Source: an uncultured Candidatus Saccharibacteria bacterium (GTDB lineage Bacteria; Patescibacteriota; UBA1384; CAYGGE01). From it: a stretch of 64,000 nt of DNA. The stretch lies in the NCBI GenBank assembly GCA_964349485.1, contig CAYGGE010000001.1, forward strand, positions 142,212 through 206,211, in the 5' to 3' direction. The number at the start of each line of letters is the position of its first letter. Position 1 is the stretch's first letter. Positions 2,940 to 59,755 of the stretch are shown piece by piece. Under the pieces are notes generated by a model that worked only from the letters and a program-made list of their open reading frames with translations, was not told the origin of the DNA and made no database searches. The translations under genes and the position numbers were made by a program.

Positions 2940-2947
2940 ATCGTTCC

Positions 2948-33686: not shown

Positions 33687-33693
33687 AGACTAT

Positions 33694-40762: not shown

Positions 40763-40765
40763 CCT

Positions 40766-43503: not shown

Positions 43504-43508
43504 AAATA

Positions 43509-45047
43509 ATGTCATTGCTATCGATTAAACTACCGCAATTATTCCGGCCTTACAGCCTCTTCTTTTTGGCAGTTTGTGTCCGGCTACTCTACCTCAACTA
43601 CTTTGGGGCCCCAGAAGGAGTTGACTCAGGTTTTTATCAGGAGAATGCAACAATCCTTATTAACGCTGGATATAATCCGTTAGCATTATTGGCCTATAAA
43701 GTCCCACCTTACTATTGGCTATATTCAATGGTGATAGCTCTCCTAGCTAATAATCTGTACGCAGTCATTGGTTTACAGATTTTTTTAGCGGGTCTATCAA
43801 GCGTCCTAGTATATAGTATAGCCAAATCTGTTTTCAGTGAAAATGCAGGTATCTTGAGTGGTCTGTTTTACGTCTTCCTCTTCGAACTGTTCCAATGGGA
43901 TACGTATATTCTTACTGACTCGTTATTCGTATTCATCTTAGTACTTGCGACCTATGTGGTGGTGAGGCGTGAAGATTGGAAACGGTTGAATTGGCTTATC
44001 TTGCTTAGTTTGCTTTTACTCGCGATTATTATGCTTCGCCCGACAGCGTTCCCTTTTCTGGCCGCCCTGGCGCTGTTTTGGCTCTCCCAGGTTACACCAA
44101 GTAAACGGCGCATCATTGTCTCTTTTCTCCTCATCGTTCTCGGGATGGTTGGCCTTGGTGCATATGCTATGGGCTTGTTCAGCCAAGGTGAAGGACTGAA
44201 TATCGCTCACTATTTACGCTATTATATTGATAATTTTCGCCAAGGAATCGTGATTCGAGATCGATTGGCCTATAGTCTACCGGTCCAGTGGGATCCGGGA
44301 TTGACTGTATCGAACTTAGTCCTAGCCATCTCCATTTTCATCCACCGTATAGCAGCATTCTGGTTCATTACGGTCAAGGAATTCTCACTTTGGCATAAGG
44401 TATTTAATCTATTTACCCTGACCCCCCTCTTTTTATTCGCTTTAGTCGGCTATTTTCGTAAGAAGCGAGAGGTGATCAGGCCAGCCTACATTACCTTATT
44501 CAGATACTTGATCGGAGTCTTTGTTCTTTTCCAGGCGATGACCGAAGTCGATTATGATTTTCGCTATCGGGTGCCAGTGCTACCATTTGTCATACTGTTT
44601 GCAGGTTATGGCCTGACGATTATCAAGCCGACGAAACTATTCCCCAGAGCTAGACTATTCGAGCTAGTTCGTTACATAAGTGTTGGTTCACTTCTTGCAT
44701 TGACCGATTTTGTGCTATTTGGTGTGCTAAACTATTTGCATGTCAATATATACTTAGCCGCTCTATTGGATTTTGTGGTAGGGATGATCATTGGCTACCT
44801 CTTGCATAGTCGCTTTACGTTTAGATATGACACCACTGGCAAGCAGATACAAAAATTTTCCCAGCTCATTGTCGTGGGTCTCGGTGGACTTATTATCACT
44901 TGGCTGATACTCTATTGGGTAGCTGATGGAATGGGCATACATCCTGCGTTAGCCAAGTTTATTGCCATGTGTCTGTCCTTCATCTGGGCCTATTCCATGA
45001 ATCGTTGGTGGGTATTTCGCCGGTCATCAGACAGCCCAATTGTTTGA
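43509..45047 (+). CDS. Fusion membrane protein: N-terminal ArnT/PMT-like (GT-C-type) polytopic domain plus C-terminal GtrA-like domain
   Basis: Start at ATG 43509 (MSLLSIKLPQ). C-terminal RYISVGSLLALTDFVLFGVLNYL...CLSFIWAYSMNRWWVF is characteristic of GtrA-family small flippase-like proteins. Confidence 0.55.
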   Translation: MSLLSIKLPQLFRPYSLFFLAVCVRLLYLNYFGAPEGVDSGFYQENATILINAGYNPLALLAYKVPPYYWLYSMVIALLANNLYAVIGLQIFLAGLSSVLVYSIAKSVFSENAGILSGLFYVFLFELFQWDTYILTDSLFVFILVLATYVVVRREDWKRLNWLILLSLLLLAIIMLRPTAFPFLAALALFWLSQVTPSKRRIIVSFLLIVLGMVGLGAYAMGLFSQGEGLNIAHYLRYYIDNFRQGIVIRDRLAYSLPVQWDPGLTVSNLVLAISIFIHRIAAFWFITVKEFSLWHKVFNLFTLTPLFLFALVGYFRKKREVIRPAYITLFRYLIGVFVLFQAMTEVDYDFRYRVPVLPFVILFAGYGLTIIKPTKLFPRARLFELVRYISVGSLLALTDFVLFGVLNYLHVNIYLAALLDFVVGMIIGYLLHSRFTFRYDTTGKQIQKFSQLIVVGLGGLIITWLILYWVADGMGIHPALAKFIAMCLSFIWAYSMNRWWVFRRSSDSPIV

Positions 45048-45055
45048 AAGGAACA

Positions 45056-46045
45056 ATGAAAGTAATCATACCTTTTACTATCCATGGTGTCGGTGGGACG
45101 TCAACTTTTGCTACAAAGTTTTCGGATGCACTGCGACACGTCAATATCAAGGTTACCAACCGGTTTGCTTTCGATGCTGACTGTCTCTTTATCATAGTTG
45201 ACTGTGCTTTGTGGTTGGCGTTTTTGGCGAAGATTTCAGGTATCAGAGTTGTTCAACGTCTCGATGGCGTCTATCATCCAGCGACTCCGTACGGAGCCTG
45301 GTATTGGTTATACAATATCAAGATGAAGATAATTCATAACTACCTGGCCGATTTTGTGGTTTATCAAAGTGAATTTAGTGCGCAATCCTGCCGTAAGTTT
45401 CTTGGTGTTCCTCACAAGCAGTCGACGCTTATCTATAACGGTGTGGCGATTCCCTCACCTGTTGCCTCAAAGCGACGAACGGACACGATTAAGCCAATCC
45501 GGTTAGTGACTTTTGCAAAATTTCGTCGTCAGGACCAGATAGAGCCGATTATTCGGGCCGTGGCGTTACTCGATCCAAGGGAATATACTTTAGACATATA
45601 CGGTAGCTATACTCAGTCACTCGAACAGCTTTTTACCACATTACCGTCTCATATAAGTGCTAAAGGCGAGCTGCCTAACCGGAAGCTGTTAGCTAGGCTT
45701 CACGATTACGATATGTTCCTGTTTGCCGATCAGTCGGCCTGCCCCAACGCGGTGATCGAGGCCTTGGCGGCCGGCTTGCCGGTCGTCGGCTATGATCGGG
45801 GGAGTATTAGTGAGTTAGTTAGCAATGGCCGAAGTGGCGAGATCGTTCGTCTCAAGCATCACGATCCGTTTGTTACATCATATCCATACACCGAGGATGA
45901 CTATCAGTTGATGAGTCAAGCGATAGAGAAAGTGAGAAAAAAACTTGAAACGTATCGCCGTGAGGCCAGACAGAGCGCAGTTGAGCACTTTGACATTGAG
46001 CCCATGATGAATCAATATCTCAAGGTTATCAGCGACCATGCATAA
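45056..46045 (+). CDS. Glycosyltransferase family 1-like (GT-B)
   Basis: Start at ATG 45056 (MKVIIPFTIHG). C-terminal CPNAVIEALAAGLPVVGYDRGSISELV. Confidence 0.65.
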   Translation: MKVIIPFTIHGVGGTSTFATKFSDALRHVNIKVTNRFAFDADCLFIIVDCALWLAFLAKISGIRVVQRLDGVYHPATPYGAWYWLYNIKMKIIHNYLADFVVYQSEFSAQSCRKFLGVPHKQSTLIYNGVAIPSPVASKRRTDTIKPIRLVTFAKFRRQDQIEPIIRAVALLDPREYTLDIYGSYTQSLEQLFTTLPSHISAKGELPNRKLLARLHDYDMFLFADQSACPNAVIEALAAGLPVVGYDRGSISELVSNGRSGEIVRLKHHDPFVTSYPYTEDDYQLMSQAIEKVRKKLETYRREARQSAVEHFDIEPMMNQYLKVISDHA

Positions 46046-47129
46046 ACCAAGAATCCTGATTGTTTCGTATCTCGCCCATCCTTTGTTCGCCGAATCCTCA
46101 GGTGTGGTTCATGGTGGGTCTGAACTGGCAATGTACAATTTAGCCAAATATACTAATAAAGACGAGTTCGAGGTACATTGTTTGGTTGGTGACTTCAGCC
46201 AGCCCGCTAATCAACTTATCGATCAGATCCATGTACATAAAGGACCGAAGGTCGAAAGAGTCGGGATCTTGAAGGGCATGCTAAATGTCCTGAATCTTTT
46301 TCGTAAAGTTAAACAGATTAATCCCGATGTTATGGTTTCCTCTTCAGCTGGTTGGTTAACTATTGAGCTTATTTTGATCAAGATACTTCTTGGGAAAAGG
46401 TATATTTTCCGCAGTTCTCACCGACGCAATATCGATGGTAGTCTGGACTCAAAGGGCTATGGCTGGCTCTATCGGCGACTCATGAACCGAATCGATTGCT
46501 TCGTGATCCAAAATGCTGAGGACGAGTTGGTTCTTCGGACAACCTACAGTTACGTTGGCAAGGTCGTCTGCATTAAGAATCTTCAGGATATACCACCAAA
46601 AATCGATGACAGTTACCGACAACGTGAGTATATACTTTGGGTCGGCCGATCAGAGGCCATAAAACAGCCCGAGCTCTTTCTCGAATTAGCCAGAAAACTA
46701 CCCAAACATCAATTCAAAATGCTAATGCCCAAGACGAATGAAGCAATATACGCGAAGATAACCGAAGAAGCGAAGCTTATCCCTAATCTGACGATCCTGG
46801 ATTGGATCGACCACGAGGCGATTGCGCAACTTTACCAATCTGCTCGATTTTTGGTTAGCACCTCTGCTGGTGAGGGGTTGCCAAACGTTGTCCTTGAAGC
46901 AATGAAGTATGGTTGTCCTATTCTCTCTTATCAACTGGATTATGATGGTATGATAGAAAACAGCTGTGGTTTAGTCGCAGGCGGTGACATGATAAAACTC
47001 GTCGAATTTATTGACTCTTGTCAGGAACAGACTTGGCAGAAGTTGTCCGATGCCTGCTTTGACTACGCAACCGCTAATTTTTCTGCACCAAAAAATATTA
47101 AAGCCTATGAAGCAATCCTTAGGGGTTAA
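46038..47129 (+). CDS. Glycosyltransferase family 1 (GT4)
   Basis: GEGLPNVVLEAMKYGCPILS motif. Confidence 0.8.
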   Translation: MHKPRILIVSYLAHPLFAESSGVVHGGSELAMYNLAKYTNKDEFEVHCLVGDFSQPANQLIDQIHVHKGPKVERVGILKGMLNVLNLFRKVKQINPDVMVSSSAGWLTIELILIKILLGKRYIFRSSHRRNIDGSLDSKGYGWLYRRLMNRIDCFVIQNAEDELVLRTTYSYVGKVVCIKNLQDIPPKIDDSYRQREYILWVGRSEAIKQPELFLELARKLPKHQFKMLMPKTNEAIYAKITEEAKLIPNLTILDWIDHEAIAQLYQSARFLVSTSAGEGLPNVVLEAMKYGCPILSYQLDYDGMIENSCGLVAGGDMIKLVEFIDSCQEQTWQKLSDACFDYATANFSAPKNIKAYEAILRG

Positions 47130-47130: not shown

Positions 47131-48096
47131 ATGCCAACAGATTTACCAGTGAAGTGGAAAGTTTTGAGCACGATGGATATCAGCCACTGTCCACAGGCTT
47201 TCGATCTACTCAAAGAACAGACCGACTTCACCTATATGACTGCCGATCAAGAAAAACTCAAGGAGGTTATTAACGATTACGATATCTATATCTCTACTCT
47301 CGGTGTTCGGGTGACCAAAGAGATGCTTGATCGCCAAGGTCGTCTCAAGGTAATCGCTACTCCTTCAACGGGGACTGACCACATCGATTGCGCCGCTGCT
47401 GAGGCAAATGGGATTACAGTCCTATCCTTAAAAAAAGAGACCAAATTCCTTGATCGGATCACCGCCACAGCTGAGTTGACCTGGGGACTATTACTATCGG
47501 TTGTCCGTAATATCCCTACTGCCTTCGAAGCAGCTAAACAGGGCAGGTGGGCCCGTGATGAATTTCGAGGTCGTCAATTGTCTGGCAAGACCTTAGGGAT
47601 TCTCGGTTATGGTCGTTTAGGTCGGATCGTCGCAGACTATGGGCAGGCATTTCGGATGAAAGTCTTGGTCAACGATGTCAAATCGATCAACTCTAGTCCT
47701 GGCATAGAGGTCGTTGATCTTGATACCTTACTTAAGGAATCAGATGTCCTCTCAATTCATATCCATCTCACTGATGAAAATAAACAATTCATTAATGCTA
47801 CCGCTTTCCAAAAAATGAAAAAAAGTGCTGTACTAATCAACACCAGTCGCGGTGGTATTGTTGATGAGCAGGCACTTATTGAAGCTCTCAGCTCAGGTCA
47901 ATTGGCCGGAGCGGGCGTTGACGTTATCGATGGTGAATGGGACACTGATCTAGCTAATCACCCAATGATCCGTTACGCGAAGGATCACAACAATTTAATT
48001 ATCACCCCGCATATCGGCGGTGTTGCTCATGAGGCGCAGAGCATGGTCTTTGAATTTCTAGCTGAAAAGATTATGGAACATATTACAAAGAGCTAA
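47131..48096 (+). CDS. D-isomer-specific 2-hydroxyacid dehydrogenase family (NAD-binding)
   Basis: Start ATG 47131 with an AGGGG RBS. GILGYGRLGRIVA (GxGxxG), INTSRGG and HIGG motifs. Confidence 0.8.
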   Translation: MPTDLPVKWKVLSTMDISHCPQAFDLLKEQTDFTYMTADQEKLKEVINDYDIYISTLGVRVTKEMLDRQGRLKVIATPSTGTDHIDCAAAEANGITVLSLKKETKFLDRITATAELTWGLLLSVVRNIPTAFEAAKQGRWARDEFRGRQLSGKTLGILGYGRLGRIVADYGQAFRMKVLVNDVKSINSSPGIEVVDLDTLLKESDVLSIHIHLTDENKQFINATAFQKMKKSAVLINTSRGGIVDEQALIEALSSGQLAGAGVDVIDGEWDTDLANHPMIRYAKDHNNLIITPHIGGVAHEAQSMVFEFLAEKIMEHITKS

Positions 48097-48812
48097 AGGT
48101 AGAGCCCTTTTTCGCGGAACTTACGTAGCATATACTCAGCTGTCACCCAGTCGAATTCGGTGTCGATATCGACGTATCGCTCTTGGGGGACGATGTGGCC
48201 CACAATATGGTTGCCGAATAGTTTGTTCTCTTTCATAAACAGGTCGCGTTTCATGACATAAACATGTCCACTGCGTCGATAGGCTGGAGGGAGGTCTTGT
48301 CGTCTACGGCCTTCAGGTTCATCCATGAAGTAGGGCAGGACATTTTGCCCATCTAGTCGCTTAGCTTTCATGGGGTGTTTACCACTTTCGATTTCAACGA
48401 TGGATACTGCACTATCAGCATCCGTTTTTTCGATCAAGGCGATCGTCTCATCGATATCTTCAACCAAGCGAAATGGTGAAGTTGGCTGGAGGATGACTAT
48501 ATAGTCGTAAGTGTAGCCCCTAGCATTCTCCATATGAGTGATAGCGTGCTGGACTACTGGCAGATGTGGGGTATTATCTTGGGCGAGTTCGGCAGGACGA
48601 ATGAAAGGAATCTCGACACCAAGCTTTCCGGCAATCTCGGCAATCTCCTGATCGTCGGTCGAAACAATCAGATCGGTGATCGCCTTACTCCGTTTCGCTA
48701 TATCGATGGTGTAGGCGATAAGTGGCTTGCCCCCAAAATCTTTAACATTTTTTCGAGGCACCCCTTTTGAACCACCTCGGGCCGTAATGATCGCTAAAAC
48801 TCTCTTATCCAT
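48093..48812 (-). CDS. neuA: CMP-nonulosonic acid (N-acylneuraminate) cytidylyltransferase
   Basis: LAIITARGGSKGVPRKNV cytidylyltransferase signature. 239 aa. GGTGG RBS. Confidence 0.8.
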   Translation of the reverse strand: MDKRVLAIITARGGSKGVPRKNVKDFGGKPLIAYTIDIAKRSKAITDLIVSTDDQEIAEIAGKLGVEIPFIRPAELAQDNTPHLPVVQHAITHMENARGYTYDYIVILQPTSPFRLVEDIDETIALIEKTDADSAVSIVEIESGKHPMKAKRLDGQNVLPYFMDEPEGRRRQDLPPAYRRSGHVYVMKRDLFMKENKLFGNHIVGHIVPQERYVDIDTEFDWVTAEYMLRKFREKGLYL

Positions 48813-48844
48813 AATCCACCTTTGTAATCTATACTAACTTGAGT

Positions 48845-50023
48845 TTACTCAACAAATCTTTTCTGAGTGTAAAGCTCAGTCGTGGCGACGGTTTCGGCGA
48901 TCGCTTGGCTGGTACCGTCCTCTGCGTAGAGCGCGGAAGAGGGATATCGACCAACTTCAAGCTGTTTTGCAATTGCGGCCGTTATCTCATCACTCTCATT
49001 GCCAGACGACAAGACGTTGTCAGCGACCAGTCGATTGCTCTGGCGTTTGCCTACATTGACTACAGGTATACCAAGAAACGAGCATTCTTTAATCCCGGCT
49101 GATGAGTTGCCGATCAGACATCTCGTATTAACAAGTAGAGAGAGAAAATCTTTGGGTGGCAGATAACGTAAGAAACGGATGCGACTATCGGCTACTTTGT
49201 TCTTAAAGACACGTAGCTCGTGAGATATATACTCTGCCCCTGCGTCGAAGTTGGGCCAGAACCAAATTGTTTGAAGCCCTGTCCTGTGGATCGCTTCTAG
49301 CAGTTTCTTGGTATTTTCGGCGATTGAGCCAAGATCTGTACTGACTGGATGATACATGACCATCAGGTAAGGCTCATTTGGCTGAAAGCTCACCCCACTA
49401 CCAAATTGATCGACAGCAATGGTTCTTATGTCGTGCCCTTTATGCTGCATGGCCCTCACGACCTCAATATCGGGACTACCAAAGTTGTAGACGTGCTCCG
49501 GCCGTTCCCCCATCTTCAGAATACGTTGTTTAGCCGGTTCGTTAGTGGCGAAGTGTACGTGGGCCAGCTTAGTGATGGCGTGTCGGACTGATTCGTCGAG
49601 AGTTCCGCTGATATCACCACCTTCAATATGAGCAACGGTAATATTCATGTAAACCGCAGCGATAGTGGCAGCTAAAACCTCGAATCGATCGCCGCGAACG
49701 ATCACGATATCGGGGTTCATGGCGTGAAAGATCGATGAAAATTCGACGATACCTAATCCAACAGTTTTTGATTTGACGATATAATTGTCACCATCGAGGT
49801 TGAAATAGGCTTCGTGAATGTTCGCATAACCTTCGTCCTCGAGAATGCTCTTTATATTAAAGTTATGAGAGGCATAACGTTCAAGGAGCACAACTCCCCC
49901 GAGTATGATGTGGAGCTCCACGTCATCGCGCTTCCGTAGCTCTTCAAGAATCAAGAAGTTGCGACTGTAGTGGATGTAGCTGGTGATGATAAAACAGACT
50001 TTTCGCTTCGGGGTGTCGTTCAT
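48845..50023 (-). CDS. neuC: UDP-N-acetylglucosamine 2-epimerase (hydrolysing), NeuC family
   Basis: DIVIVRGDRFEVLAATIAAVYMNITVAHIEGGDISGTLDESVRHAITKLAHVHF aligns with E. coli NeuC GDRYE...HIHGGE...HSITK. Confidence 0.8.
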   Translation of the reverse strand: MNDTPKRKVCFIITSYIHYSRNFLILEELRKRDDVELHIILGGVVLLERYASHNFNIKSILEDEGYANIHEAYFNLDGDNYIVKSKTVGLGIVEFSSIFHAMNPDIVIVRGDRFEVLAATIAAVYMNITVAHIEGGDISGTLDESVRHAITKLAHVHFATNEPAKQRILKMGERPEHVYNFGSPDIEVVRAMQHKGHDIRTIAVDQFGSGVSFQPNEPYLMVMYHPVSTDLGSIAENTKKLLEAIHRTGLQTIWFWPNFDAGAEYISHELRVFKNKVADSRIRFLRYLPPKDFLSLLVNTRCLIGNSSAGIKECSFLGIPVVNVGKRQSNRLVADNVLSSGNESDEITAAIAKQLEVGRYPSSALYAEDGTSQAIAETVATTELYTQKRFVE

Positions 50024-51108
50024 GGTTGCTCCAATACTTCTGCTGTAATCGGCTCATATTTGCTGAGATGTTTAGTCACTTTCCGGCCAAGAACTGATTC
50101 GTAGTCCTCAGAAGGTAGTCCACCTGCGTACGCTTGCGGTCGCATGGCGTAGATCAATTCAGGCGAAAGGGTAGTCCCAGGAGCAACGTCGGCGCCTGCC
50201 ATGAGCGACTTGCGAAATAGCGGTCGAAACTTGGCTTCTTCCTCCTGAAGGAGCTTCGTCTCTTCACCGTAGTCGGCCAAATTAACCGGCTTTTTATGTC
50301 GTAGACTATCAACCATTGCCTTAAACTCATCTGGCATTAGCGATACTTTGTGATCAGAACCCCAGAGTTCACGACTCCAAGAGAAATGTTTTTCGATGAC
50401 AACTGCACCCATTGCCGCGGCGGCTAAGGTTGCATCGGCTTCGAGCGAGTGATCTGAAAAACCGATCGGGATTTCGTATCGCTTCTGGAAAAATTCAATT
50501 GTCTTTAAGTTAAAATCTTTTGGATCAGTCACCGGGTATTGGGAGACGCAGTGCAAAAGAACCAGTTTGTCAGTTCTTTTTTTGAGAAAAGCTACTGCCT
50601 TATCAACTTCTTCCAGTGTACTCATCCCTGAAGAAACAATAATCGGCTTACCGGTTTGGGTCAGATAGTCGAGTAACACAAAATCGAGTAGATCACCTGA
50701 TCCAACTTTCCAGATTGGTGGATCGATTGCCTCAAGCTTTTGGGCGGCTCCACGGCTCATTGGGGTAGAAAAGAAGATAATATCGAGCTCGTCGCTATAG
50801 GTCTTTAAGGCCTGCCAGAATTCAGGTGGCGTAGCTTCGGTATTACGTTTGACCCAGCTGTAACGATCGCTACCAGAGAAATGCGGAGCGGTCACGTCAA
50901 TATTGAGTTGCTCATCGCGGTAATCATGGGTCTGTAGTTTCACCGCATCAGCACCAGCAGCCTTGGCGGCCTTAATGAGAGATTTTGCGTTTTCAATATA
51001 TACTTCGACAGACTGGTCTTCTTTTGTTTGGATAAAATTTTTCCCGATTTCAGCAATCGTGAAAATATCCTTCTTAATATATTCCATGAGATCAGGCTTA
51101 GGCATCAT
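50020..51108 (-). CDS. neuB: N-acylneuraminate (nonulosonate) synthase, NeuB family (PEP-dependent TIM barrel plus SAF domain)
   Basis: IAEIG, FSTP, KVGSGD, IVSSGM, LLHCVSQYP, GFSDHS and IEKHFS motifs in NeuB order, with a C-terminal SAF-like region. Confidence 0.75.
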   Translation of the reverse strand: MMPKPDLMEYIKKDIFTIAEIGKNFIQTKEDQSVEVYIENAKSLIKAAKAAGADAVKLQTHDYRDEQLNIDVTAPHFSGSDRYSWVKRNTEATPPEFWQALKTYSDELDIIFFSTPMSRGAAQKLEAIDPPIWKVGSGDLLDFVLLDYLTQTGKPIIVSSGMSTLEEVDKAVAFLKKRTDKLVLLHCVSQYPVTDPKDFNLKTIEFFQKRYEIPIGFSDHSLEADATLAAAAMGAVVIEKHFSWSRELWGSDHKVSLMPDEFKAMVDSLRHKKPVNLADYGEETKLLQEEEAKFRPLFRKSLMAGADVAPGTTLSPELIYAMRPQAYAGGLPSEDYESVLGRKVTKHLSKYEPITAEVLEQP

Positions 51109-52480
51109 TCCTTTCAGTGGTCTTGATTGACAGATAGTCTATTATAAAACGAGCGGCTCTCATCCCGGACTGACCGTCGGTCTGCCAACACTGTTGTCGG
51201 ACAATTCTTGCTCGTTCTTTCGCTTCAAGTCTGGGATCATTATAGTACGCATTTATAGAGTTGAGCAAGTCAAGTTCGTCGCGTACGACTCGGATCCCAC
51301 CAGTTTTTACCAGCTTGCCGTAGTGCTCGCTCTCAAAGTACATATTACTATTTGGCTGGATAGTGTCGTACTTGGCAAACTTGATGTTAATAATTGGTTT
51401 ATCGAAGACTGCCGCATCGATCGATATTGAAGAGGGCGGGCAGATTAAAATCGAGGTATAGTAGAGCGTATCGAAGAGGTTCTGTATATCTTTAGCGTTC
51501 ATATCCCAATCGATACCTCTTTCTTTGGTGAAACGAATACCTGGGCGTTGAATGATTATTCGCTCCGGGTGCTCTAGCCCTTCTAGATCAACGTCATCGT
51601 TGGGAGGAAAACGGACCAGGATCTGAAAATCATCGGATATTTGTTGCTTCAATTGAAATTCCACCAAAATATTTAAATATGTTGCGTCAAGTTTGCAGTA
51701 GGTTGCACCCATTGGACAGAAGAGAATGATCTTCTTGTCGGGGTCTAAACCAATTGATTGGAAAAACAGCTCTTTTCTGGTGGGTCGGCCACGGAAGAAG
51801 ATGTCGTAGTGAGGGATGCCAATAATCGTGACATCTTTCGCCTTGATATCCAAGTACTTTACCGCCTCGTCTCGAACTAACTCATTATGGACTAGTAGTT
51901 TGTCAGGCAATACCCAAGCCATACCACGAGAAGTGATCTTGTCCCAAGAGTTGATTAGACCAATAGTTTTAATGCCGCGACGCTTGGCCTCTCTTAGCAG
52001 TGTCGCTTCTGCCTCACCAAAAATATGGGCGCTAAGAATCAATGTGGGCTTGTACTTGGCTAGTAGCTCGCTATAGGCCCGACTTTTAATAAACGGCGAA
52101 CGAAAACTCCGGGCCAAAGCTCGACCGATTCGATTAGCGAATAATCGACTGAATAAGAGCTCGGTGAAGTATTTACCATAATTCTTGTCCACGGTTAAGG
52201 CATTGTTTCGCTTAAGGTTGAGTGTATGGGTTAGGACTAAGTTTTTCTTAAGAAATGAGTATAAAGTATCTAGGGCTGAATGGCTTGGTTCATTAATTAT
52301 TTCAAAGACTACATTGGTTGCTGTAAATTCTTTTTCGAAGTAGGTTTTTTTCTGCTCATTGGGTACTAACAGCACGATCAAGAGTTGCTGTTCGGACTGA
52401 AGGGTGGTAAAAAAGTCGTTACGTAACAAATTTTTTGCCTCGGAACCCTGTAAGATTGGGATAAATATCGTTTGCTTCAC
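51098..52480 (-). CDS. TagB/TagF- or KpsS-like GT-B glycosyl/glycerophospho-transferase family protein (paralog 1); a nonulosonate transferase is the speculative role
   Basis: 460 aa. GIPHYD motif resembling the GYPRND motif of the CDP-glycerol glycerophosphotransferase family. Probable GTG start with a GGGGGT RBS. Paralogous to 53838-55232. Confidence 0.4.
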   Translation of the reverse strand: MKQTIFIPILQGSEAKNLLRNDFFTTLQSEQQLLIVLLVPNEQKKTYFEKEFTATNVVFEIINEPSHSALDTLYSFLKKNLVLTHTLNLKRNNALTVDKNYGKYFTELLFSRLFANRIGRALARSFRSPFIKSRAYSELLAKYKPTLILSAHIFGEAEATLLREAKRRGIKTIGLINSWDKITSRGMAWVLPDKLLVHNELVRDEAVKYLDIKAKDVTIIGIPHYDIFFRGRPTRKELFFQSIGLDPDKKIILFCPMGATYCKLDATYLNILVEFQLKQQISDDFQILVRFPPNDDVDLEGLEHPERIIIQRPGIRFTKERGIDWDMNAKDIQNLFDTLYYTSILICPPSSISIDAAVFDKPIINIKFAKYDTIQPNSNMYFESEHYGKLVKTGGIRVVRDELDLLNSINAYYNDPRLEAKERARIVRQQCWQTDGQSGMRAARFIIDYLSIKTTERNDA

Positions 52481-52482
52481 TT

Positions 52483-53847
52483 TTAACCCCCAAACTTACT
52501 ACGTAAAGTGACTAGTGTGCGATTAAAGAGTAACTTGTCATACTCATCAAAGATTAGCAGGCTCTTGAAGCTAAGTCGAAAATTTGGTTTTTCTTTCAGC
52601 AGGAAATAGTAGGCGGCGAGGGTCATGAGCAACTGAGTTAGAAAAAACTCAAGTGCGATGCCGTAGAGCTGAAGCGTTGGGGTGAGGATTAAGTTAAAGA
52701 AGATAATCGAACCGGCGCCAATTACTGGAATAAAAAACAACTCTTTTTGCCGTCGAACTGAATAGAGTATTTGACCAATTATCGATTGGACGCCAAAGAA
52801 GAGCATCGAAGCCAACACGATGAAAAAGTACGGTAAGGATGGACTGTATTTTGGTAAGATCCAATTAACGAGGATCGGCACGACTGTTGCACCAAATAAA
52901 AAGATGCCAAAGAATGCGTAAGTAACGTAACGACCGCCTCGGATGTAAAGATCTTTGAGTTTTTCCTCATTGTCGAGCTGTCGAGGTAAGAAAATTTTTA
53001 TCGAGTTAAAGGAGATCAAACCCTTCAAGGCTCCGAGGAAATTCAGCGCAACGCTGAAGATAGCGACACCTTCGACTCCGACAAAGTATTTTACTACCCA
53101 GGGCCGGACGTTTTGTGTGAAGTTCAACAAGTAGTAGCGAGCGACTGCCCAAGGACCATATTTCTTGATCAGACGTGCAAGTAGTGATTCCGTCGCTTGT
53201 AGTGTAGCCTTGTCGGTCGATTTACCCATCAAATCTGGAAGTATCTTTGGTAGCAAGAAGGGTATGATAAGGAGATGTGTGGCGACACTTAAGATGAGCA
53301 TTGTCTGAACGTTGAGCGTCGTATATTTAAAGACCACCACGATAAGCACCAGCTTGATAACCTCGTAAAAGAAATCGTAGCTTGCTGAGAGCAAGAAATT
53401 TGTTCGGTATTCAAGGGCAAGGGTGACTAACGCCTTAGTATTTTCTATTATAAACAGGAAGGCAATCACTCTTATCCAACTACCGGCGTCGGGACCGTAA
53501 TAGAGACCTATTCGGTCGGCTAGACCATAAACCGCTAGAGTTAAGACGAGACCGACAATGATTTTGAATATGGAGTATTCTCTCAAGATACTTCGAGCTC
53601 GTTCGGGCTGTTTCTGACCATTGTAGATATTCATTTCATTCAATACTAAGGTGTCGAGAAAATTTATCGAGAAACCAGAAACAATCGATTGAAACGATAG
53701 AACGAGATTATACAGACCAAAATCTCTTAGACTTAAGAATTTTAACAACACGAAACCGTTGACTAAAGTGAGCGGTTTTGTGGCGGCAATAAACAAACTG
53801 TTAATTCCTTCGCCACGGATAATCTTTTTATAGAATTCTATTTCCAT
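52483..53847 (-). CDS. Wzx-type oligosaccharide flippase / polysaccharide biosynthesis protein
   Basis: 454 aa, 12 or more TM helices, MOP-superfamily-like composition. Confidence 0.7.
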   Translation of the reverse strand: MEIEFYKKIIRGEGINSLFIAATKPLTLVNGFVLLKFLSLRDFGLYNLVLSFQSIVSGFSINFLDTLVLNEMNIYNGQKQPERARSILREYSIFKIIVGLVLTLAVYGLADRIGLYYGPDAGSWIRVIAFLFIIENTKALVTLALEYRTNFLLSASYDFFYEVIKLVLIVVVFKYTTLNVQTMLILSVATHLLIIPFLLPKILPDLMGKSTDKATLQATESLLARLIKKYGPWAVARYYLLNFTQNVRPWVVKYFVGVEGVAIFSVALNFLGALKGLISFNSIKIFLPRQLDNEEKLKDLYIRGGRYVTYAFFGIFLFGATVVPILVNWILPKYSPSLPYFFIVLASMLFFGVQSIIGQILYSVRRQKELFFIPVIGAGSIIFFNLILTPTLQLYGIALEFFLTQLLMTLAAYYFLLKEKPNFRLSFKSLLIFDEYDKLLFNRTLVTLRSKFGG

Positions 53848-55232
53848 GTTTGGTCTTCCAACGCTTTAGATAGAAGTGTGACGAGACGTTTCGAAGCGTT
53901 ACCATCGAGTTTGTAACATTGTTCGTTAATGAGACGTTCCCGCTCCTTTTTACGGATGTCAGGATTGTCGATAATTTCTTTAATCGCGTCTACCAACTCT
54001 TGCTGGTTCTTTGCCAGAGCGACAGCTCCACTTTTCATAATGTTGAGATAATGCTCTCTGCCGTAATAACGACTAATCGAGTCGGGCTCTGGAACCGTCG
54101 CATAGCCGTCAAAGGCCAAGCAGATTGCGGGTCGACCGACCACGGCTGCATCGATCGACATAGTCGAAGCGACATTGATCGTGACGATAGAATGATAGAG
54201 TGAATTGTACCAGTGTTTAACATCGTCGTCCTCAAAGACCCAATCACGTGTTCCTTCTGTAAGGTAAGTAAATGGCTGCTCAACGGTAACATGTTTTAGT
54301 GCCTCAACGCCCGTGAAGCTACTATGAAACTTAGGATGACTGCGAACCTGAATATGGATATCCGCTGGTAGTGAACCATCGGTGATCGCTTTATCCAAGA
54401 TGAACAAATAGTCTCGATCATTGGGGCTTAAAAGATCACCCGAGGCAGAGAATAGCACGACCTTTTTTTTCGGATCGATGCCAAGTTTCGCGTAGAAAAC
54501 GTCACGCGGCTCAATTAACTCGGCTTTGTGGGCATTTAAGTAGTCAAATTGTGGGATACCAGTCACCATTACTCGATCGGCAGGCATATCGTCAAGCTCG
54601 ATCGCTTCTTGTTTCATGAGCTCATTGTGGGTAACCAGCAAATCAGGCAAGATCGCCATAAAGGTTTTGGTCGTCAAGTTGTCCCAACTTTTGAGCATCT
54701 GGACACAAGGGATACCGAGTTGGCTCGCTTGTTGGACAAGCTTATAGTCACTTGGTGTAATCGAGGGGACAAAGATGAGATCTGGCTTAAGTTCATGGAT
54801 CAGGGTATTGCCGTATGTGGCACGATCGAACGTTCGGTAAAGATATCGGATGAAGTTACGCCAGGCCTTGAACTGACCCAGGTGCCATAAAATTCGGAAA
54901 CCGAGATAGATCGGCAAGGAGATCTTGTTATGACCATAGATTCCATTAAGACTGTAATACTCAATATCGGCGATCGTCTGAGTATGGATATTGTGTTTGA
55001 GTATTAGGTTAAATAGAGCATCGATCCGGCTTATCTTGTATGGCAGATAGTGAACACTGACCATATCGGAGGCGTGGTTCTTCTGAAGATAGGAAAAGTA
55101 GGGTTTATTGGAACAGACGATATGAACCCTGACTCCAGTGGCCAGGAGTAGAGAAAAAAAGTCGGTCTTCAGCAAATTGCGTTCAACCATGCCGTCAGAG
55201 ATGGAAAGTAAGATAGACTTAGGCATGCTCAT
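53838..55232 (-). CDS. TagB/TagF- or KpsS-like GT-B transferase family protein (paralog 2)
   Basis: 464 aa with the same architecture as paralog 1 and a TGIPQFD motif. ATGA-coupled. Confidence 0.4.
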   Translation of the reverse strand: MSMPKSILLSISDGMVERNLLKTDFFSLLLATGVRVHIVCSNKPYFSYLQKNHASDMVSVHYLPYKISRIDALFNLILKHNIHTQTIADIEYYSLNGIYGHNKISLPIYLGFRILWHLGQFKAWRNFIRYLYRTFDRATYGNTLIHELKPDLIFVPSITPSDYKLVQQASQLGIPCVQMLKSWDNLTTKTFMAILPDLLVTHNELMKQEAIELDDMPADRVMVTGIPQFDYLNAHKAELIEPRDVFYAKLGIDPKKKVVLFSASGDLLSPNDRDYLFILDKAITDGSLPADIHIQVRSHPKFHSSFTGVEALKHVTVEQPFTYLTEGTRDWVFEDDDVKHWYNSLYHSIVTINVASTMSIDAAVVGRPAICLAFDGYATVPEPDSISRYYGREHYLNIMKSGAVALAKNQQELVDAIKEIIDNPDIRKKERERLINEQCYKLDGNASKRLVTLLSKALEDQTWK

Positions 55233-56452
55233 ACCTTAATCGCTTTCGATTGACCAATTGCCTCAAGAAAGACTGACTCATACTGTTTTCCAAGTAGCTC
55301 GGCGTCAAATTTCTGTTTGTAGATTTGTAGCGATTGACTAGAGAATTTATTGACCAGCGACGGACGATCGAGAAACTGTTTGATTGACCGATAGACAAAG
55401 TCCTCAACCGGTTTAAACTTACCTTGTTCCTGAAATTTGAAAAAACTATGATAAAAATCTTTTTGATGATGATACTGACCATGGAGTTTGTAAGTTTTCG
55501 GATCGTAATCTTTCATCGGGTGATCGGGAAAGATGAAGCCGTTCGAATCATGGGTAACCATCTCACTAGTGGCAAATTGGTCGGTGGTAATTATTGGCAG
55601 ACCATAGGCCAGGGCTTCTATCAGAACTAGTCCAAACCCTTCACGATAGGTTGGTAGAACGAAGACGTCGTGCTTCTGGTATAGCGAGGCTATCGCCACT
55701 TCGTCAAGATCGGCATTGAGTAGGGTTAGCCCTGGCAGGGCCTTGAGATAGGCTCGATGGTGGTCGTAGAGCATGTCAAGATCGGTAACGATCGTTAAAC
55801 TGAGGTTTGTGTATTGCTTGCGGAGTCGTTCATATGCGTGAGCAACCTCGACTCCTCCCTTAATGTAGTAAGTTCCTAGAAAGAGGAGACGCAGATGGCC
55901 ATCAAACTTCTTTTGGACAATTTGTTTTGGTTTAGCGATTGGGATGGGGTAGATCACGCTACTTTTTGCCATCATGACTTCACGAACTGGCTTAGGATAA
56001 TCAACGGTCGCGTAGAAACTCTTTTTTGCCGCCTCGCTCATGAAGATCAGTTGCTTGCAGTTTTTTCGGGTAGTCAAGAGACCAACGAGCCAACGGGCCA
56101 AGGGCCGTTTGGCGACTAAAGCGTCATAATTGTAGAGGGCTAGACCGGTTTCAATGTAAGTGCAGTAAGGCTTGGTGCTGACTAAAAGGCAAGCATAGGT
56201 AAAATAAAGGTCGCCAGCTTGGTCAAAACGAATCCGGATATTGGGTATACCGACTAGACGTCGGAGCCTCGAAAGTCCACTATCCTTTTTGCGAGTTATT
56301 TCTTTGGCAAAAACTGACACATCGGGATTGCGCAGTTTCGGTTTGGCTGGTGTAACGGTTGATTGAAAGTTTATCTGATCAAGGTATTGGCCAAGGTTGA
56401 AAATGAAACGACGGAGGTATCGTTGAAACAGGATCACTGTAAATGGTTTCAT
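55229..56452 (-). CDS. Glycosyltransferase family 1 (GT4)
   Basis: REGFGLVLIEALAYGLPIITTD motif. Confidence 0.8.
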   Translation of the reverse strand: MKPFTVILFQRYLRRFIFNLGQYLDQINFQSTVTPAKPKLRNPDVSVFAKEITRKKDSGLSRLRRLVGIPNIRIRFDQAGDLYFTYACLLVSTKPYCTYIETGLALYNYDALVAKRPLARWLVGLLTTRKNCKQLIFMSEAAKKSFYATVDYPKPVREVMMAKSSVIYPIPIAKPKQIVQKKFDGHLRLLFLGTYYIKGGVEVAHAYERLRKQYTNLSLTIVTDLDMLYDHHRAYLKALPGLTLLNADLDEVAIASLYQKHDVFVLPTYREGFGLVLIEALAYGLPIITTDQFATSEMVTHDSNGFIFPDHPMKDYDPKTYKLHGQYHHQKDFYHSFFKFQEQGKFKPVEDFVYRSIKQFLDRPSLVNKFSSQSLQIYKQKFDAELLGKQYESVFLEAIGQSKAIKV

Positions 56453-56483: not shown

Positions 56484-57770
56484 CTAGAGGGTCGTATAGA
56501 TGACAGTAGGATCAGTTCGCAGAGATGAGAAATGACTTTTTACATCGAATACGACTGGCCTTTTAGGCATGAGGGCAAGAACGTCACGTAGGGAGATCGG
56601 GTGAGCCTTGTGGACAGATGCAATGATCACCGCATCGAATTTGCCTTCGAGTGAAGCAATTGAGTCGATGTCAAAACCTCGACGTATTTCTTGTTTAGTG
56701 AGCATCGGATCATAACCTTTGACCGTCACACCAAGTGCTCGCAGTCGATCGATCGTGACGGCAATTCGTGAGTTACGAGTGTCTTTAACATCTTCTTTAA
56801 AGGTCAAACCAATCACCAAGACTTTACTCGATTGAATATTTTTTCTGGCGCCAATCAGACCCTTAATCGTTTCGTCGGCCACAAATTCTGGCATGGAGTC
56901 GTTGACTCGGCGACCGGCTGCAATTACTTCGGGGTGATAACCTAATTCCTGGGCCTTATAAACCAAGTAATAAGGATCTACTCCAATGCAGTGGCCGCCG
57001 ACTAATCCGGGCGAAAACTTTAAGAAATTCCATTTTGTTCCTGCCGCGGCCAATACGTCCTGGGTATTGATCCCCATACGGTGAAATATGAGAGAAAGTT
57101 CGTTAATAAGTGCAATATTCAAGTCGCGTTGAGTATTTTCAATCACTTTGGCCGCTTCGGCGGTCTTGATATTGGGGGCGATATGGACACCAGCTTCACA
57201 GACCGCAAGATAGGTGTCGGCAACAATTTTGGTCGTTTTCTGATCTTCGCCGGAAACAACCTTAACAATTCGCTCAAGAGTGTGCTCCTTGTCACCTGGA
57301 TTTATTCGCTCTGGCGAATAACCCAATTTGAAATCGTGGCCCTGTTTCAACCCAGAAACTTTTTCAAGTATGGGGCCGCAAAATTCTTCGGTGACACCTG
57401 GATATACAGTTGACTCATAGACGACGACCGAACCTTTTTGCATCTGTCGACCAATGATCTGACTGGCACTATCGAGTAACCAAAGATCAGGTTGATTAGC
57501 TTTATTGATTGGTGTTGGAACAGCGACAATGAAGAAATCGGCGGCCTTGAGATCATCTTCATTGTCCGTGTAGATCAGTTTGCTTGACTGAATCTCTTCA
57601 GCTGTCAGTTCACCACTACTATCGATGCCCGATTTAAGATCGCGCACCCGTTGTTTATTGATATCAAAGCCAATCGTTTTAATAGCTGTCCGGCCAAAAG
57701 CTAGCGCAAGAGGTAGTCCGACGTAGCCAAGGCCCACAACTGCAACAGTTCGATCTGAATGTTTAGACAT
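56484..57770 (-). CDS. UDP-N-acetyl-D-hexosamine (ManNAc/GlcNAc) 6-dehydrogenase family (WecC/WbpA/Cap5O-like nucleotide-sugar dehydrogenase)
   Basis: Start at ATG 57770 (MSKHSDRTVAVVGLGYVGLPLA), with an ATGTCTAA overlap of the upstream stop. The N-terminal 80 aa of the track ORF is spurious. GxGYVG Rossmann fold and UDPG_MGDP_dh architecture. Confidence 0.8.
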   Translation of the reverse strand: MSKHSDRTVAVVGLGYVGLPLALAFGRTAIKTIGFDINKQRVRDLKSGIDSSGELTAEEIQSSKLIYTDNEDDLKAADFFIVAVPTPINKANQPDLWLLDSASQIIGRQMQKGSVVVYESTVYPGVTEEFCGPILEKVSGLKQGHDFKLGYSPERINPGDKEHTLERIVKVVSGEDQKTTKIVADTYLAVCEAGVHIAPNIKTAEAAKVIENTQRDLNIALINELSLIFHRMGINTQDVLAAAGTKWNFLKFSPGLVGGHCIGVDPYYLVYKAQELGYHPEVIAAGRRVNDSMPEFVADETIKGLIGARKNIQSSKVLVIGLTFKEDVKDTRNSRIAVTIDRLRALGVTVKGYDPMLTKQEIRRGFDIDSIASLEGKFDAVIIASVHKAHPISLRDVLALMPKRPVVFDVKSHFSSLRTDPTVIYTTL

Positions 57771-58725
57771 TATAATACTCCTTGTACCATTCCCAGAATT
57801 TCGGGATGCCGGTACTAATCGTATATTTTGGTTGGTAATCAAGTAAACGTGTAGCCTTACTGACATCTGCTGATGTTGCTTCAACTTCACCTGGAGGCAT
57901 GGGGAGCAACTCTTTCTTCGCTTGCTTGCCAGTGACTTTTTCAATGGTTTCAACGAATTGCCCGAGGGTGACCGTATTGCTGGCGCCGAGGTTGATAATT
58001 TCGTAATCAAACGGTCGATCGAGACTAGCGATTACCCCATCAACAATATCGTCAATGAACGTGAAATCGCGTTTCATATTGCCAAAGTTATTGAGTTTGA
58101 TTGGTGTACCGGCTAGGATTTGACCGGTCAATATAAACAGAGCCATATCCGGTCGACCCCAAGGTCCATAGACTGTAAAGAAGCGCAAGCCGGTCGATTT
58201 CAGGCCGTAAAGGTTATTGTAGTAATAGGCCTGAAGCTCATTGGCCCGTTTTGATAAAGCGTAGGGGGCCATCGGTTGATCGACTCGATCCTCTTCGGAA
58301 AAAGGCAGTTTCTTGTTTGCGCCGTAAACAGATGATGATGAGGCATAGACGACATGAGGGATATGGTATTTGACGGCCATATCAAATATGTGGCGGGTGC
58401 CTACAATGTTGACTGATTCGTACATTTCCGGACGGGCGATCGAGGTTTTAACTCCGGCCCAGGCGCCTAGGTGGCAGATGTGATCAAAGGATCGTTCGCT
58501 AAAGAGCTTATCTAGCGCCTCTTTGTCTCGCATGTCGAGCTCGATCACTGGAATATTGTGGGGTTCGAGTAGATTTTTGACTCGGTCACGCTTTAACTGA
58601 CTAGGATAAAGTCCATCATTGAAGTCGTCAATTACCACGACCGAATCACCTCGTTTGGCCAAACGCAGGGCCGTCTGTGAGCCAATAAAACCGGCTCCGC
58701 CTGTAACAAGATAATTTTTACTCAT
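57763..58725 (-). CDS. NAD-dependent nucleotide-sugar epimerase (UDP-glucuronate / UDP-GlcNAcA 4-epimerase-like SDR)
   Basis: MSKNYLVTGGAGFIGS, YASSSSVYG and PYALSKRANE (YxxxK). GGAAA RBS. Confidence 0.8.
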   Translation of the reverse strand: MSKNYLVTGGAGFIGSQTALRLAKRGDSVVVIDDFNDGLYPSQLKRDRVKNLLEPHNIPVIELDMRDKEALDKLFSERSFDHICHLGAWAGVKTSIARPEMYESVNIVGTRHIFDMAVKYHIPHVVYASSSSVYGANKKLPFSEEDRVDQPMAPYALSKRANELQAYYYNNLYGLKSTGLRFFTVYGPWGRPDMALFILTGQILAGTPIKLNNFGNMKRDFTFIDDIVDGVIASLDRPFDYEIINLGASNTVTLGQFVETIEKVTGKQAKKELLPMPPGEVEATSADVSKATRLLDYQPKYTISTGIPKFWEWYKEYYNV

Positions 58726-59075
58726 TTAGTTTCCTTAGAGCTTACTTTTGTATCAGTCAGTGCCTGGGCGCGAATTAGTTCAGTTAATAACCGTTCCAAC
58801 CTAGCCGCTTTGATGTAGGTTCGATAGACAATGTAGAGTAAGAAGATAAAGGCGAAACTGGTCATGGAACCGATCGTCAGACTATTATCTTTAGTGTATT
58901 GGCTAAACCATTCAATCAAAACCGGATAGGCAACTAAGATGGTAGAACCGACCCAAACCAAGGTCCAGAAGATGAAGACTATGAATGGCTCATATTTCCG
59001 ACGGTAGTCTAAATAACTTTTCGCTACGGCAATAAGACCTAGGAGCACCGCCGCAATTTTGAAGATAATAATCAT
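58722..59075 (-). CDS. DUF2304-like small membrane protein (common partner of polyprenyl-phosphate GT2 enzymes)
   Basis: 117 aa with 3-4 TM helices. ATGA-coupled to the upstream GT2. Confidence 0.5.
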   Translation of the reverse strand: MIIIFKIAAVLLGLIAVAKSYLDYRRKYEPFIVFIFWTLVWVGSTILVAYPVLIEWFSQYTKDNSLTIGSMTSFAFIFLLYIVYRTYIKAARLERLLTELIRAQALTDTKVSSKETK

Positions 59076-59755
59076 CGGATATTCCTTGTGAGTAAACCTA
59101 GAAAGATGTTAATGGCATTGAGTGGATGCTGACCCTTACGTTTGGAATAGGAGCTGTAGATCGTGGTGATTGGCACCTCCAGGTAACGAAGACGATGTCG
59201 TTTAACCTCGCCGACTACTTCCGAGCAAAACTCATAGCCATTAGACGAAAGTTCGATCGTTGCCAAGGCCTGTTTGGAGAAGGCCTTAAAGCCACTCTGC
59301 GAGTCAGTGACCCAGATGTGAAAAAACAGATAGGTGACTAGGTTAAGTAGAAAGTTACCAACTTTTTTGTAGGCCGGCATCGCCTTACTTTTCTCAATTA
59401 GCCGAGAGCCGAGGACGAAGTCAACTTCATGGCGGACGATTGGCTTTATGACGTCAGCGATATCGGCTGGATCGTGCTGACCGTCGGCATCAAGCGTCAC
59501 GACTATATCGGCGTTAAGCCGTTTGGCTGCTTCAATACCTGTAAGTGTGGCTCCACCTGCTCCTAGGTTAAGGTTGTGACGAAAGGTACGGGCACCGACT
59601 TTCTCGGCGATCTTTCTGGTCTCGTCGGCCGAATGATCATCTACAACAATAGTTGTTATCTTATCAATCCCGGGTAAAGACTTGGGAATTGATTTAATAA
59701 CGTGCTTTATCGACTGCGCCTCATTGTGAGCAGGAATAACAATTACTAGTTGCAT
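59072..59755 (-). CDS. GT2 polyprenyl-phosphate glycosyltransferase (DPM1/GtrB/ArnC-like)
   Basis: MQLVIVIPAHNEAQSI, VVDDHSADET and TLDADGQHDP (DxD). 227 aa. First gene of a roughly 12-gene minus-strand operon. Confidence 0.8.
   Translation of the reverse strand: MQLVIVIPAHNEAQSIKHVIKSIPKSLPGIDKITTIVVDDHSADETRKIAEKVGARTFRHNLNLGAGGATLTGIEAAKRLNADIVVTLDADGQHDPADIADVIKPIVRHEVDFVLGSRLIEKSKAMPAYKKVGNFLLNLVTYLFFHIWVTDSQSGFKAFSKQALATIELSSNGYEFCSEVVGEVKRHRLRYLEVPITTIYSSYSKRKGQHPLNAINIFLGLLTRNIR

Follow-up and report, generated by a model that had tools for sequence, protein, structure and literature searches.

Two TagF-like GT-B paralogs encoded beside a NeuA-NeuB-NeuC module in a Patescibacteria genome are candidate CMP-nonulosonate transferases

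Bacterial nonulosonic acid transferases are poorly known, and for the TagB-like class there is genetic support in one species and one contrary case. In Tannerella forsythia, knock-outs demonstrated that TagB-domain proteins encoded beside pseudaminic (Pse) or legionaminic (Leg) acid genes must be present for the O-glycan to carry its terminal nonulosonate (Tomek et al. 2017, PMC5420450). SpsB, a TagB-domain (TagB/SpsB) protein encoded beside nonulosonate genes in the Bacillus subtilis sps operon, was proposed to be a transferase on the same grounds, yet spsB deletion left Leg on spores unreduced (Dubois et al. 2020, PMC7439481), a contrary case in which gene adjacency alone did not predict function and which calls for caution. 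Here we describe a related locus in a 64,000-nucleotide (nt) stretch of DNA from an uncultured Candidatus Saccharibacteria bacterium (Patescibacteriota; assembly GCA_964349485.1, contig CAYGGE010000001.1, positions 142,212 to 206,211 of the forward strand), hereafter the window, in which two paralogous TagF-like proteins, paralogs A and B, are encoded beside NeuA, NeuB and NeuC homologs. With moderate confidence, we propose from sequence comparisons that A and B are glycosyltransferases that use a cytidine monophosphate (CMP)-activated nonulosonate.

The pairing of a nonulosonate module with TagB/TagF-like candidate transferases is already known as a kind. The first-pass annotation of this DNA spoke of an uncharacterised route for the lineage; our literature searches that paired Patescibacteria or candidate phyla radiation bacteria with nonulosonic, sialic or pseudaminic acid yielded no relevant paper within the library searched, and for the kind T. 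forsythia provides the precedent (PMC5420450). On TagB-like transferases our searches found no later work beyond PMC5420450 and PMC7439481. The T. forsythia proteins (Tanf_01245, TFUB4_00887 and BFO_1060) likewise have about 445-460 amino acids (aa) and a GT-B/TagB-like domain, their genes adjoin those for CMP-nonulosonate biosynthesis, and a CMP-nonulosonate is their proposed donor. NCBIfam model NF046086 (BFO_1060 family) matches both domains of the window paralogs (A, 46.9 bits, residues 137-450, E 2e-12; B, 48.3 bits, E 8e-13), although with a cut-off of 200 bits A and B are not members of that family. The two systems differ in phylum, in the 2-4 paralogs per locus and the flippase of the window type, and in the absence of the Pse/Leg aminotransferase steps from the window's pathway; the evidence is genetic for T. 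forsythia and comes from sequence alone for the window. New here are the phylum, a family that fails the sole curated model, its S-W-D (SWD) signature, and a His-Pro (H-P) motif kept or lost by group, together with ordered sets of 2-4 paralogs that have their own flippase, a NeuB clade private to Patescibacteria and a dehydrogenase conserved alongside.

As the first-pass annotation had proposed, A and B are full-length paralogs of about 460 aa (27% identity, E 3e-57), and its suggestion of a TagB/TagF-type relationship is borne out by PF04464 (Glyphos_transf), whose gathering score of 22.1 bits both exceed (A, 49.2 bits over residues 193-447; B, 33.0 bits over residues 391-454). Confident AlphaFold models predict a GT-B fold whose N-domain carries a helical insertion (pLDDT 93.5 for A and 91.2 for B). 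Profile-profile alignment (hhalign) of 183 family members with canonical TagF, TarL and TarF proteins, represented by seven genes taken from plasmids, joined the two sets at 98.9% probability (E 3.4e-17, A 116-449 to TarL 256-562). The C-domain motifs that match those of TarL comprise the G-I-P-x-x-D motif already picked out in the first reading, which aligns with TarL G-x-P-R-x-D, an S-S loop and a K/R-P pair, and at the position of the glutamate of the TarL 'YE' the paralogs have an acid, D355 in A and D361 in B. Profile-profile alignment of the N-domain alone was not significant. Single-sequence phmmer searches of the PDB were nearly empty for A and B, a 53-sequence profile reached TarL weakly, and Foldseek against the PDB returned generic GT-B matches only (MshA, 2-epimerases, TagF; TM-scores of 0.3-0.6), with no discrimination among them. 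The resemblance to KpsC/KpsS that had also been suggested was not recovered, the searches run giving no match to PF05159 (Capsule_synth) and no KpsC/KpsS-like closest fold; a relationship to CgeB likewise had no family or fold match in these searches.

The paralogs thus resemble TagF, TarL and TarF (PF04464; PDB 3l7i and 8va1) in GT-B fold, C-domain motifs and predicted CMP leaving group, and they differ from them at the active site and in having no N-terminal membrane-targeting extension of the TarL/TagF kind. The key residues are S178-W179-D180, G221-x-P223-x-x-D226, R290, S350-S351, D355 and H386 in A, and S182-W183-D184, G225-x-P227-x-x-D230, R297, H299-P300 and H394 in B. All seven canonical proteins contain W-H-(G/A), with Q-x-W-H (QxWH) invariant in the three that were aligned together, and the catalytic histidine of this motif is H444 in TagF and H300 in TarL, the latter being mutated in PDB 8va1. 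The paralog family has SWD in place of QxWH: no histidine occupies the canonical catalytic position in either alignment register, and the QxWH histidine is absent from 183/183 members. The hhalign register places TarL H300 opposite A165, at low to moderate posterior probability, and in the beta4-beta5 region is at odds with the strand topology; a register built on topology (beta5, loop, beta6, helix, beta7, G-x-P-x-x-D) places it at S-W-D (D180 in A, D184 in B). Conservation of the W-D pair is at least 90% in each of the six paralog groups (183 sequences), a Rhizobium homolog described below has it too, and from topology and motif reasoning we infer that D180 may be the counterpart of the TagF catalytic histidine. 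The second active-site histidine, which we take to be H584 in TagF with H433 as its TarL counterpart, lies in a TarL K-M-H433-P motif that corresponds to R290-F-P-P in A, where there is no histidine, and to R297-S-H299-P300 in B, where it is kept. H152 is nearly invariant in the alignment of A, and paralog B has no histidine there.

GT-B sialyltransferases (GT38 polysialyltransferase, GT52, GT80) share the fold and the CMP-sugar donor, and as related in the T. forsythia study they combine an N-domain carboxylate base with a C-domain His-Pro at the phosphate (Freiberger 2007, cited in PMC5420450). D184 and H299-P300 of B fit this arrangement, whereas A is without the H-P motif, and neither paralog has a family or fold match to the known sialyltransferase families (GT38, GT42, GT52, GT80) in the searches run, CAZy itself not having been searched.

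The genomic evidence for transferase function is stronger than this motif-based catalytic argument. A profile search of 1.84 billion cluster representatives recovered 1,800 family members (50%-identity clusters) at E 1e-30 or better, and homologs of paralog A come nearly all from Patescibacteria, Parcubacteria or Paceibacterota metagenome-assembled genomes. Scanning one genome per GTDB species with paralog A gave 80 loci, nearly all carrying Patescibacteria-group labels, with a few labelled 'bacterium' only and two labelled Bdellovibrionales. By tblastn within 10 kb of the A ortholog, NeuA was present in 51/80, NeuC in 49/80 (38 of the 49 share at least 35% identity with the hydrolysing NeuC of the window), NeuB in 43/80 and a DegT aminotransferase in 5/80; of the 38 loci whose flanks are complete, 31 carry one or more Neu genes, 17 carry the full set of three and two carry DegT. 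A recurrent one-strand order emerges, in which a Wzx flippase is followed by one to four TagF-like genes, by NeuC/NeuB/NeuA and by a dehydrogenase. The TagF-like proteins sort into ordered ortholog groups, with A in the dominant group T9, usually directly before the Neu genes, and B in the rare group T5, whose occurrence upstream of the flippase is limited to the window and loci L004, L009 and L010. The closest synteny is seen in L009 (CAYMZY010000009.1) and L010 (CAZJZN010000002.1), which read B, Wzx, A, methyltransferase, NeuB, NeuC, NeuA, and whose 'uncultured Bdellovibrionales' label looks doubtful, since all other relatives are Patescibacteria. Tandem fusions of two TagF-like modules, about 900 aa long, also occur in the family (P0121, P0133, P0138, P0142, P0145), as does a fusion to a polysaccharide deacetylase domain (PF01522; P0029, 779 aa); both kinds of fusion are consistent with paired or multi-step action.

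The linkage recurs outside this group. Among 72,556 plasmids the sole match was a hypothetical protein of Rhizobium sp. WL3 (WP_147885260, 464 aa, 22% identity, 96% coverage), which carries the SWD motif and is encoded on plasmid NZ_CP042825 (L089, 620582-645943) immediately after neuB-family, kpsF, neuC and neuA-family genes; this is an independent recurrence of the association between TagF-like and Neu genes. Also encoded in this Rhizobium cluster are a KpsS-like Capsule_synth protein and several hypothetical proteins, GT-B-like and 450-510 aa long. Canonical plasmid TagF genes, by contrast, adjoin genes for donor supply, namely tarI/tarJ in Staphylococcus epidermidis, tagD in Pontibacillus and an IspD/TarI gene in Streptomyces, while the one in Leuconostoc adjoins a zinc-binding dehydrogenase that is possibly tarJ-like. 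Searches of the window by tblastn with TagD, TarI and TarJ found none, and among 85 related loci searched a clear TagD-like match appeared in three (L079, L081, L082) and a weak TarI-like one in L013. That the family travels with NeuA/NeuB/NeuC and not with CDP-polyol (cytidine diphosphate-polyol) supply genes, and is without the TagF catalytic histidine, supports the transferase reading, so that the first-pass proposal of CMP-nonulosonate transferases is well supported by comparative genomics, although the activity is a prediction and the idea has a precedent.

In the window, the minus strand from 59755 to 48093 forms one tightly packed operon of 11 genes, with intergenic spacing of -11 to +32 nt, in the order GT2, DUF2304, SDR (short-chain dehydrogenase/reductase), TviB-like, GT4, paralog B, flippase, paralog A, NeuB, NeuC, NeuA. 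These genes and the convergent neighbour are as follows:

59072..59755, minus strand: GT2 glycosyltransferase, the operon's first gene, 227 aa (PF00535, 87.4 bits)
58722..59075, minus strand: DUF2304 small membrane protein, 117 aa (PF10066, 42.2 bits)
57763..58725, minus strand: SDR-family sugar-nucleotide epimerase/dehydratase, GalE/TviC-like, 320 aa (PF01370, 176.6 bits)
56484..57770, minus strand: TviB-like UDP-GlcNAc 6-dehydrogenase, 428 aa (NF011729 TviB, 427.6 bits)
55229..56452, minus strand: GT4-family glycosyltransferase, 407 aa (PF13692 and PF00534, about 70 bits)
53838..55232, minus strand: paralog B, TagF-fold GT-B protein, second candidate transferase, 464 aa
52483..53847, minus strand: putative divergent MOP/Wzx-type flippase, 454 aa, assigned through orthologs
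51098..52480, minus strand: paralog A, TagF-fold GT-B protein, candidate CMP-nonulosonate transferase, 460 aa, GTG start
50020..51108, minus strand: NeuB-family nonulosonate synthase condensing phosphoenolpyruvate (PEP), with C-terminal SAF domain, 362 aa
48845..50023, minus strand: NeuC, hydrolysing UDP-GlcNAc-type 2-epimerase, 392 aa
48093..48812, minus strand: NeuA-like CMP-nonulosonate synthetase (cytidylyltransferase), 239 aa
47131..48096, plus strand: D-2-hydroxyacid dehydrogenase, convergent with NeuA, 321 aa (PF02826, 184.8 bits)

All open reading frames (ORFs) of the first-pass annotation were found again at the same positions on the minus strand. The GT4 stop and the paralog B start overlap by 4 nt, and the genes for paralog A and NeuB by 11 nt. 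The GTG start of A at 52480 is backed by the conserved N-terminus of its homologs and by an upstream GGGGG, and public gene calls shorten the protein to 443 aa, with loss of the conserved first beta-strand. For the TviB-like dehydrogenase, which also scores 380 bits with TIGR03026, over its cut-off, the longest ORF (508 aa, to 58010) begins about 80 codons too early and runs into the SDR gene; the shorter start near 57770 is backed by the gene call in related locus L001. The SDR protein reaches no NCBIfam equivalog at its cut-off. The best promoter-like site (59798-59771) lies directly upstream of the GT2 gene, though in our promoter/terminator scan promoter-like sites were no commoner here than expected by chance.

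NeuA, NeuB and NeuC had been called recognisable, and family models agree (PF02348, PF03102 and PF02350, respectively, with an equivalog match for NeuC). NeuC scores 324.1 bits with the NeuC_NnaA hydrolysing-epimerase equivalog TIGR03568 (cut-off 235.9) and just 55.7 bits with the non-hydrolysing wecB model; in the PDB the LegG-type NeuC (5xvs) and human GNE (4zht) are equally close to it, at 184.5 bits each. NeuA (PF02348, 83.5 bits) finds its best NCBIfam match in PseF (TIGR03584; 192.0 bits, just under the cut-off of 205.7), while its best solved relatives are the CMP-Neu5Ac (CMP-N-acetylneuraminic acid) synthetases 6ifd and 9ftb. NeuB (PF03102, 226 bits, with SAF domain PF08666) falls under both the N-acetylneuraminate synthase equivalog NeuB_NnaB (TIGR03569, 243.2 bits against a cut-off of 399.65) and the PseI equivalog (TIGR03586, 236.0 bits against 340.25). 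It is slightly nearer Campylobacter jejuni PseI than Neisseria meningitidis NeuB (147 vs 130 bits), and its identity is 30-38% to every typed reference and 30-31% to N. meningitidis NeuB and BpsE. In a bootstrapped neighbour-joining (NJ) tree whose references were PseI, N. meningitidis NeuB, BpsE and two PGAP-named neuB sequences, with no verified LegI among them, NeuB groups with Patescibacteria sequences alone, in a clade of 25 (200/200 bootstraps), apart from the PseI references (197/200 bootstraps) and from N. meningitidis NeuB and BpsE. Typing of NeuB by profile cut-offs, PDB scores and this tree gave no sugar-type assignment.

The absence of a DegT-type aminotransferase and a PglF-type dehydratase, on which the first reading had based a preference for Neu5Ac/KDN over Leg/Pse chemistry, is confirmed: tblastn of the window found no homolog of either, nor of a PseB/FnlA-type dehydratase or a GNAT or hexapeptide acetyltransferase. 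In this respect the locus follows the three-enzyme logic of classical neuC-neuB-neuA modules (Escherichia coli K1, N. meningitidis sia, Bacillus cereus bps), which likewise have no aminotransferase; it departs from them in its separate, fully supported NeuB clade, in a NeuA nearer PseF, in partners that are TagF-like and not of GT38/42/52/80, and in the co-conserved dehydrogenase. The simplest assignment for the sugar is a 5-acetamido nonulosonate of Neu5Ac type, perhaps with further modification. The curated hydrolysing NeuC, the lack of aminotransferase, dehydratase and acetyltransferase genes in the window and the rarity of DegT across related loci favour this identity. The gene content that underlay the earlier preference stands, but the separate clade of NeuB below both cut-offs, the equal distance of NeuC from LegG-type NeuC and GNE, and the nearness of NeuA to PseF leave Neu5Ac unconfirmed by sequence.

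The dehydrogenase at 47131-48096 hints at an extra modification of the sugar. It resembles PGDH (phosphoglycerate dehydrogenase) and glyoxylate reductases but lies under all NCBIfam cut-offs (PGDH-like, 224 bits against 454). A D-2-hydroxyacid dehydrogenase is present in 35/80 of the related Patescibacteria loci and, of those with full flanks, in 18/38; most often its gene is the next one after NeuA or NeuB, on the same strand; loci in which it accompanies the Neu module include L014, L022, L026, L035, L056, L060, L069 and L087, among others. We know of no nonulosonate pathway with a D-2-hydroxyacid dehydrogenase.

The flippase between the paralogs, named Wzx in the first-pass annotation, has no Pfam or NCBIfam match of its own, none even at E 1 or better. 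It takes that name from its family, 15/20 full-length orthologs hitting PF01943 Polysacc_synt (best E-value 3.8e-15), and it has about 12 hydrophobic segments; on these grounds we regard it as a probable, very divergent MOP/Wzx-type flippase. It is 25-55% identical to its orthologs over full length.

A pathway can be put together from these parts, its first three steps read from the sequence itself and the later ones inferred. NeuC would release a 2-acetamido-mannose-type sugar from the nucleotide sugar, NeuB would condense that sugar with PEP to a nine-carbon nonulosonic acid, and NeuA would activate the acid as its CMP-sugar. A and B would then use the CMP-sugar donor to place nonulosonate on a lipid-linked oligosaccharide, itself presumably built by the GT2 and GT4 enzymes from UDP-GlcNAc/GalNAc-uronic acid precursors supplied by the TviB-like and SDR proteins; the two paralogs would differ in acceptor or linkage, and the divergent MOP flippase would export the finished unit. 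In the predicted enzymes the C-terminal Rossmann domain keeps the CMP scaffold of TagF/TarL (the S-S loop, the ribose-binding acid D355/D361, and R290/R297), to which paralog B would add the H-P motif, and CMP binding by the retained C-domain is plausible because TagF-type enzymes and sialyltransferases both release CMP. With the phosphotransferase histidine gone, the SWD aspartate may be the general base that deprotonates the acceptor hydroxyl, the role of an aspartate in GT-B sialyltransferases.

Several observations count against this proposal for A and B: hhalign prefers a register other than the one that equates D180 with the TagF histidine, the paralogs score 47-48 bits under the sole curated model, whose cut-off is 200, paralog A is without the histidine of the H-P motif kept in B, and no Neu gene lies within 10 kb at 7/38 of the full-flank loci. 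One could instead take A and B to be true TagF/TarL-type phosphotransferases that make a polyol- or sugar-phosphate chain from a CDP donor supplied from elsewhere, with nonulosonate added by another enzyme. Their PF04464 scores above the gathering threshold, the 98.9% match to the TarL C-domain and the retention in B of the histidine of TarL H433 ('MHP') would all agree with this, and a teichoic-like polymer is plausible if Patescibacteria, as is thought, are monoderm. We nonetheless judge it improbable, given that the QxWH histidine is missing from all 183 family members, that tagD, tarI and tarJ are absent from the window and scarce in related loci (three clear TagD-like cases and one weak TarI-like case), that the family is tied to NeuA/NeuB at most loci and again in Rhizobium, and that the operon holds no other candidate CMP-sugar transferase. 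Still less credible, and in our view very unlikely, is that A and B are not transferases at all, being either nucleotide-sugar enzymes of the 2-epimerase/hydrolase type or a pair in which one is a non-catalytic partner. Faint PF02350 matches, seen in one or more family members and in the Rhizobium homolog, point that way, as do an N-domain segment, 'PDLVFLAH...', that may resemble the epimerase 'PDxVLVHGD' segment, and the absence of the H-P histidine from A and of A's nearly invariant H152 from B; but the significant relationship is to Glyphos_transf and not to Epimerase_2, a dedicated NeuC is already there, two to four diverged and ordered paralogs with a flippase are the pattern of linkage-specific transferases, and tandem two-module fusion proteins exist.

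A different question is whether A and B are transferases for some other sugar, either a 5,7-diamino (legionaminic-like) nonulosonate whose missing genes lie outside the window or a new derivative made with the dehydrogenase. This has a minor but real share of our belief. NeuC is as near to the LegG-type NeuC as to human GNE, NeuA is nearest PseF at 192 bits, just under the cut-off, NeuB leans slightly toward C. jejuni PseI while belonging to no typed clade, the dehydrogenase accompanies the Neu module in 35/80 loci, and a few related loci do have DegT genes (L006, L038, L042, L048, L078, L086). Known Leg/Pse clusters, however, usually hold their dehydratase, aminotransferase and acetyltransferase genes together, whereas the window has no DegT or PglF/PseB homolog and DegT is found within 10 kb in just 5/80 loci and 2/38 of those with full flanks; the Pse pathway, moreover, uses PseG and not a NeuC-type epimerase. 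CMP-nonulosonate transfer by A and B, most simply of a Neu5Ac-type sugar, remains the account we favour. A bolder extension of it, to which we give distinctly less credence, is that Patescibacteria broadly decorate their surfaces with a sialic-acid-like sugar through an unrecognised transferase family of TagF descent in which the histidine gave way to the SWD aspartate, that paralogs and fusions build oligo- or poly-nonulosonate, and that the sugar is a new variant, as the private NeuB clade and the dehydrogenase might indicate.

A large family that is clearly marked in sequence and strongly tied, in phylogenetically independent lineages, to CMP-nonulosonate synthesis offers a concrete target for a new CMP-sugar glycosyltransferase family, and the locus lets one ask how a phosphotransferase scaffold may be converted to glycosyl transfer. 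The proposal also predicts sialic-acid-like surface sugars on the ultra-small, mostly episymbiotic Patescibacteria, which would bear on their attachment to, or evasion of, host cells. The Rhizobium sp. WL3 homolog provides a cultivable alphaproteobacterial test system and a possible experimental surrogate.

Patescibacteria NeuB homologs fall into several deep clades (L004, L007, L008/L019, L009, L010 and L083; L063, L078, L079, L081 and L085). One holds short proteins without the SAF domain, about 277-279 aa as called and usually encoded next to a CMAS-like methyltransferase; another holds proteins of about 520 aa, which in L079 and L081 are preceded by a TagD-like cytidylyltransferase. Several loci carry two NeuB and NeuA sets, which suggests two different nonulosonates per locus.

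The window contains further glycan and surface genes. At 751-4447 (minus strand) a second glycan cluster encodes two GT4 proteins and a canonical Polysacc_synt flippase (PF01943, 103 bits), so that with the divergent one the window probably has two MOP flippases. A convergent glycan operon at 31372-47129 (plus strand) encodes a UXS/ArnA-like SDR, a TuaD-like UDP-glucose 6-dehydrogenase, a methyltransferase, five GT4-type proteins and one GT2. At 43467-45047 (plus strand) lies a PMT_2+GtrA fusion with 13 hydrophobic segments, and at 38873-40762 (plus strand) an AsnB-like amidotransferase (TIGR03108, 628 bits against a cut-off of 817) that may amidate uronic acids; the ORFs at 33694-35100, 35097-35462 and 36597-38873 gave no family match. 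Large, probably secreted or surface proteins are encoded at 12938-15073 (plus strand), 22302-25196 (minus strand) and 28702-31253 (plus strand), one with Lamin-tail, Big_13 and fn3 domains, one of 964 aa with repeated CarboxypepD_reg domains and one with a weak dockerin-like match, and these are possible carriers of the glycan.

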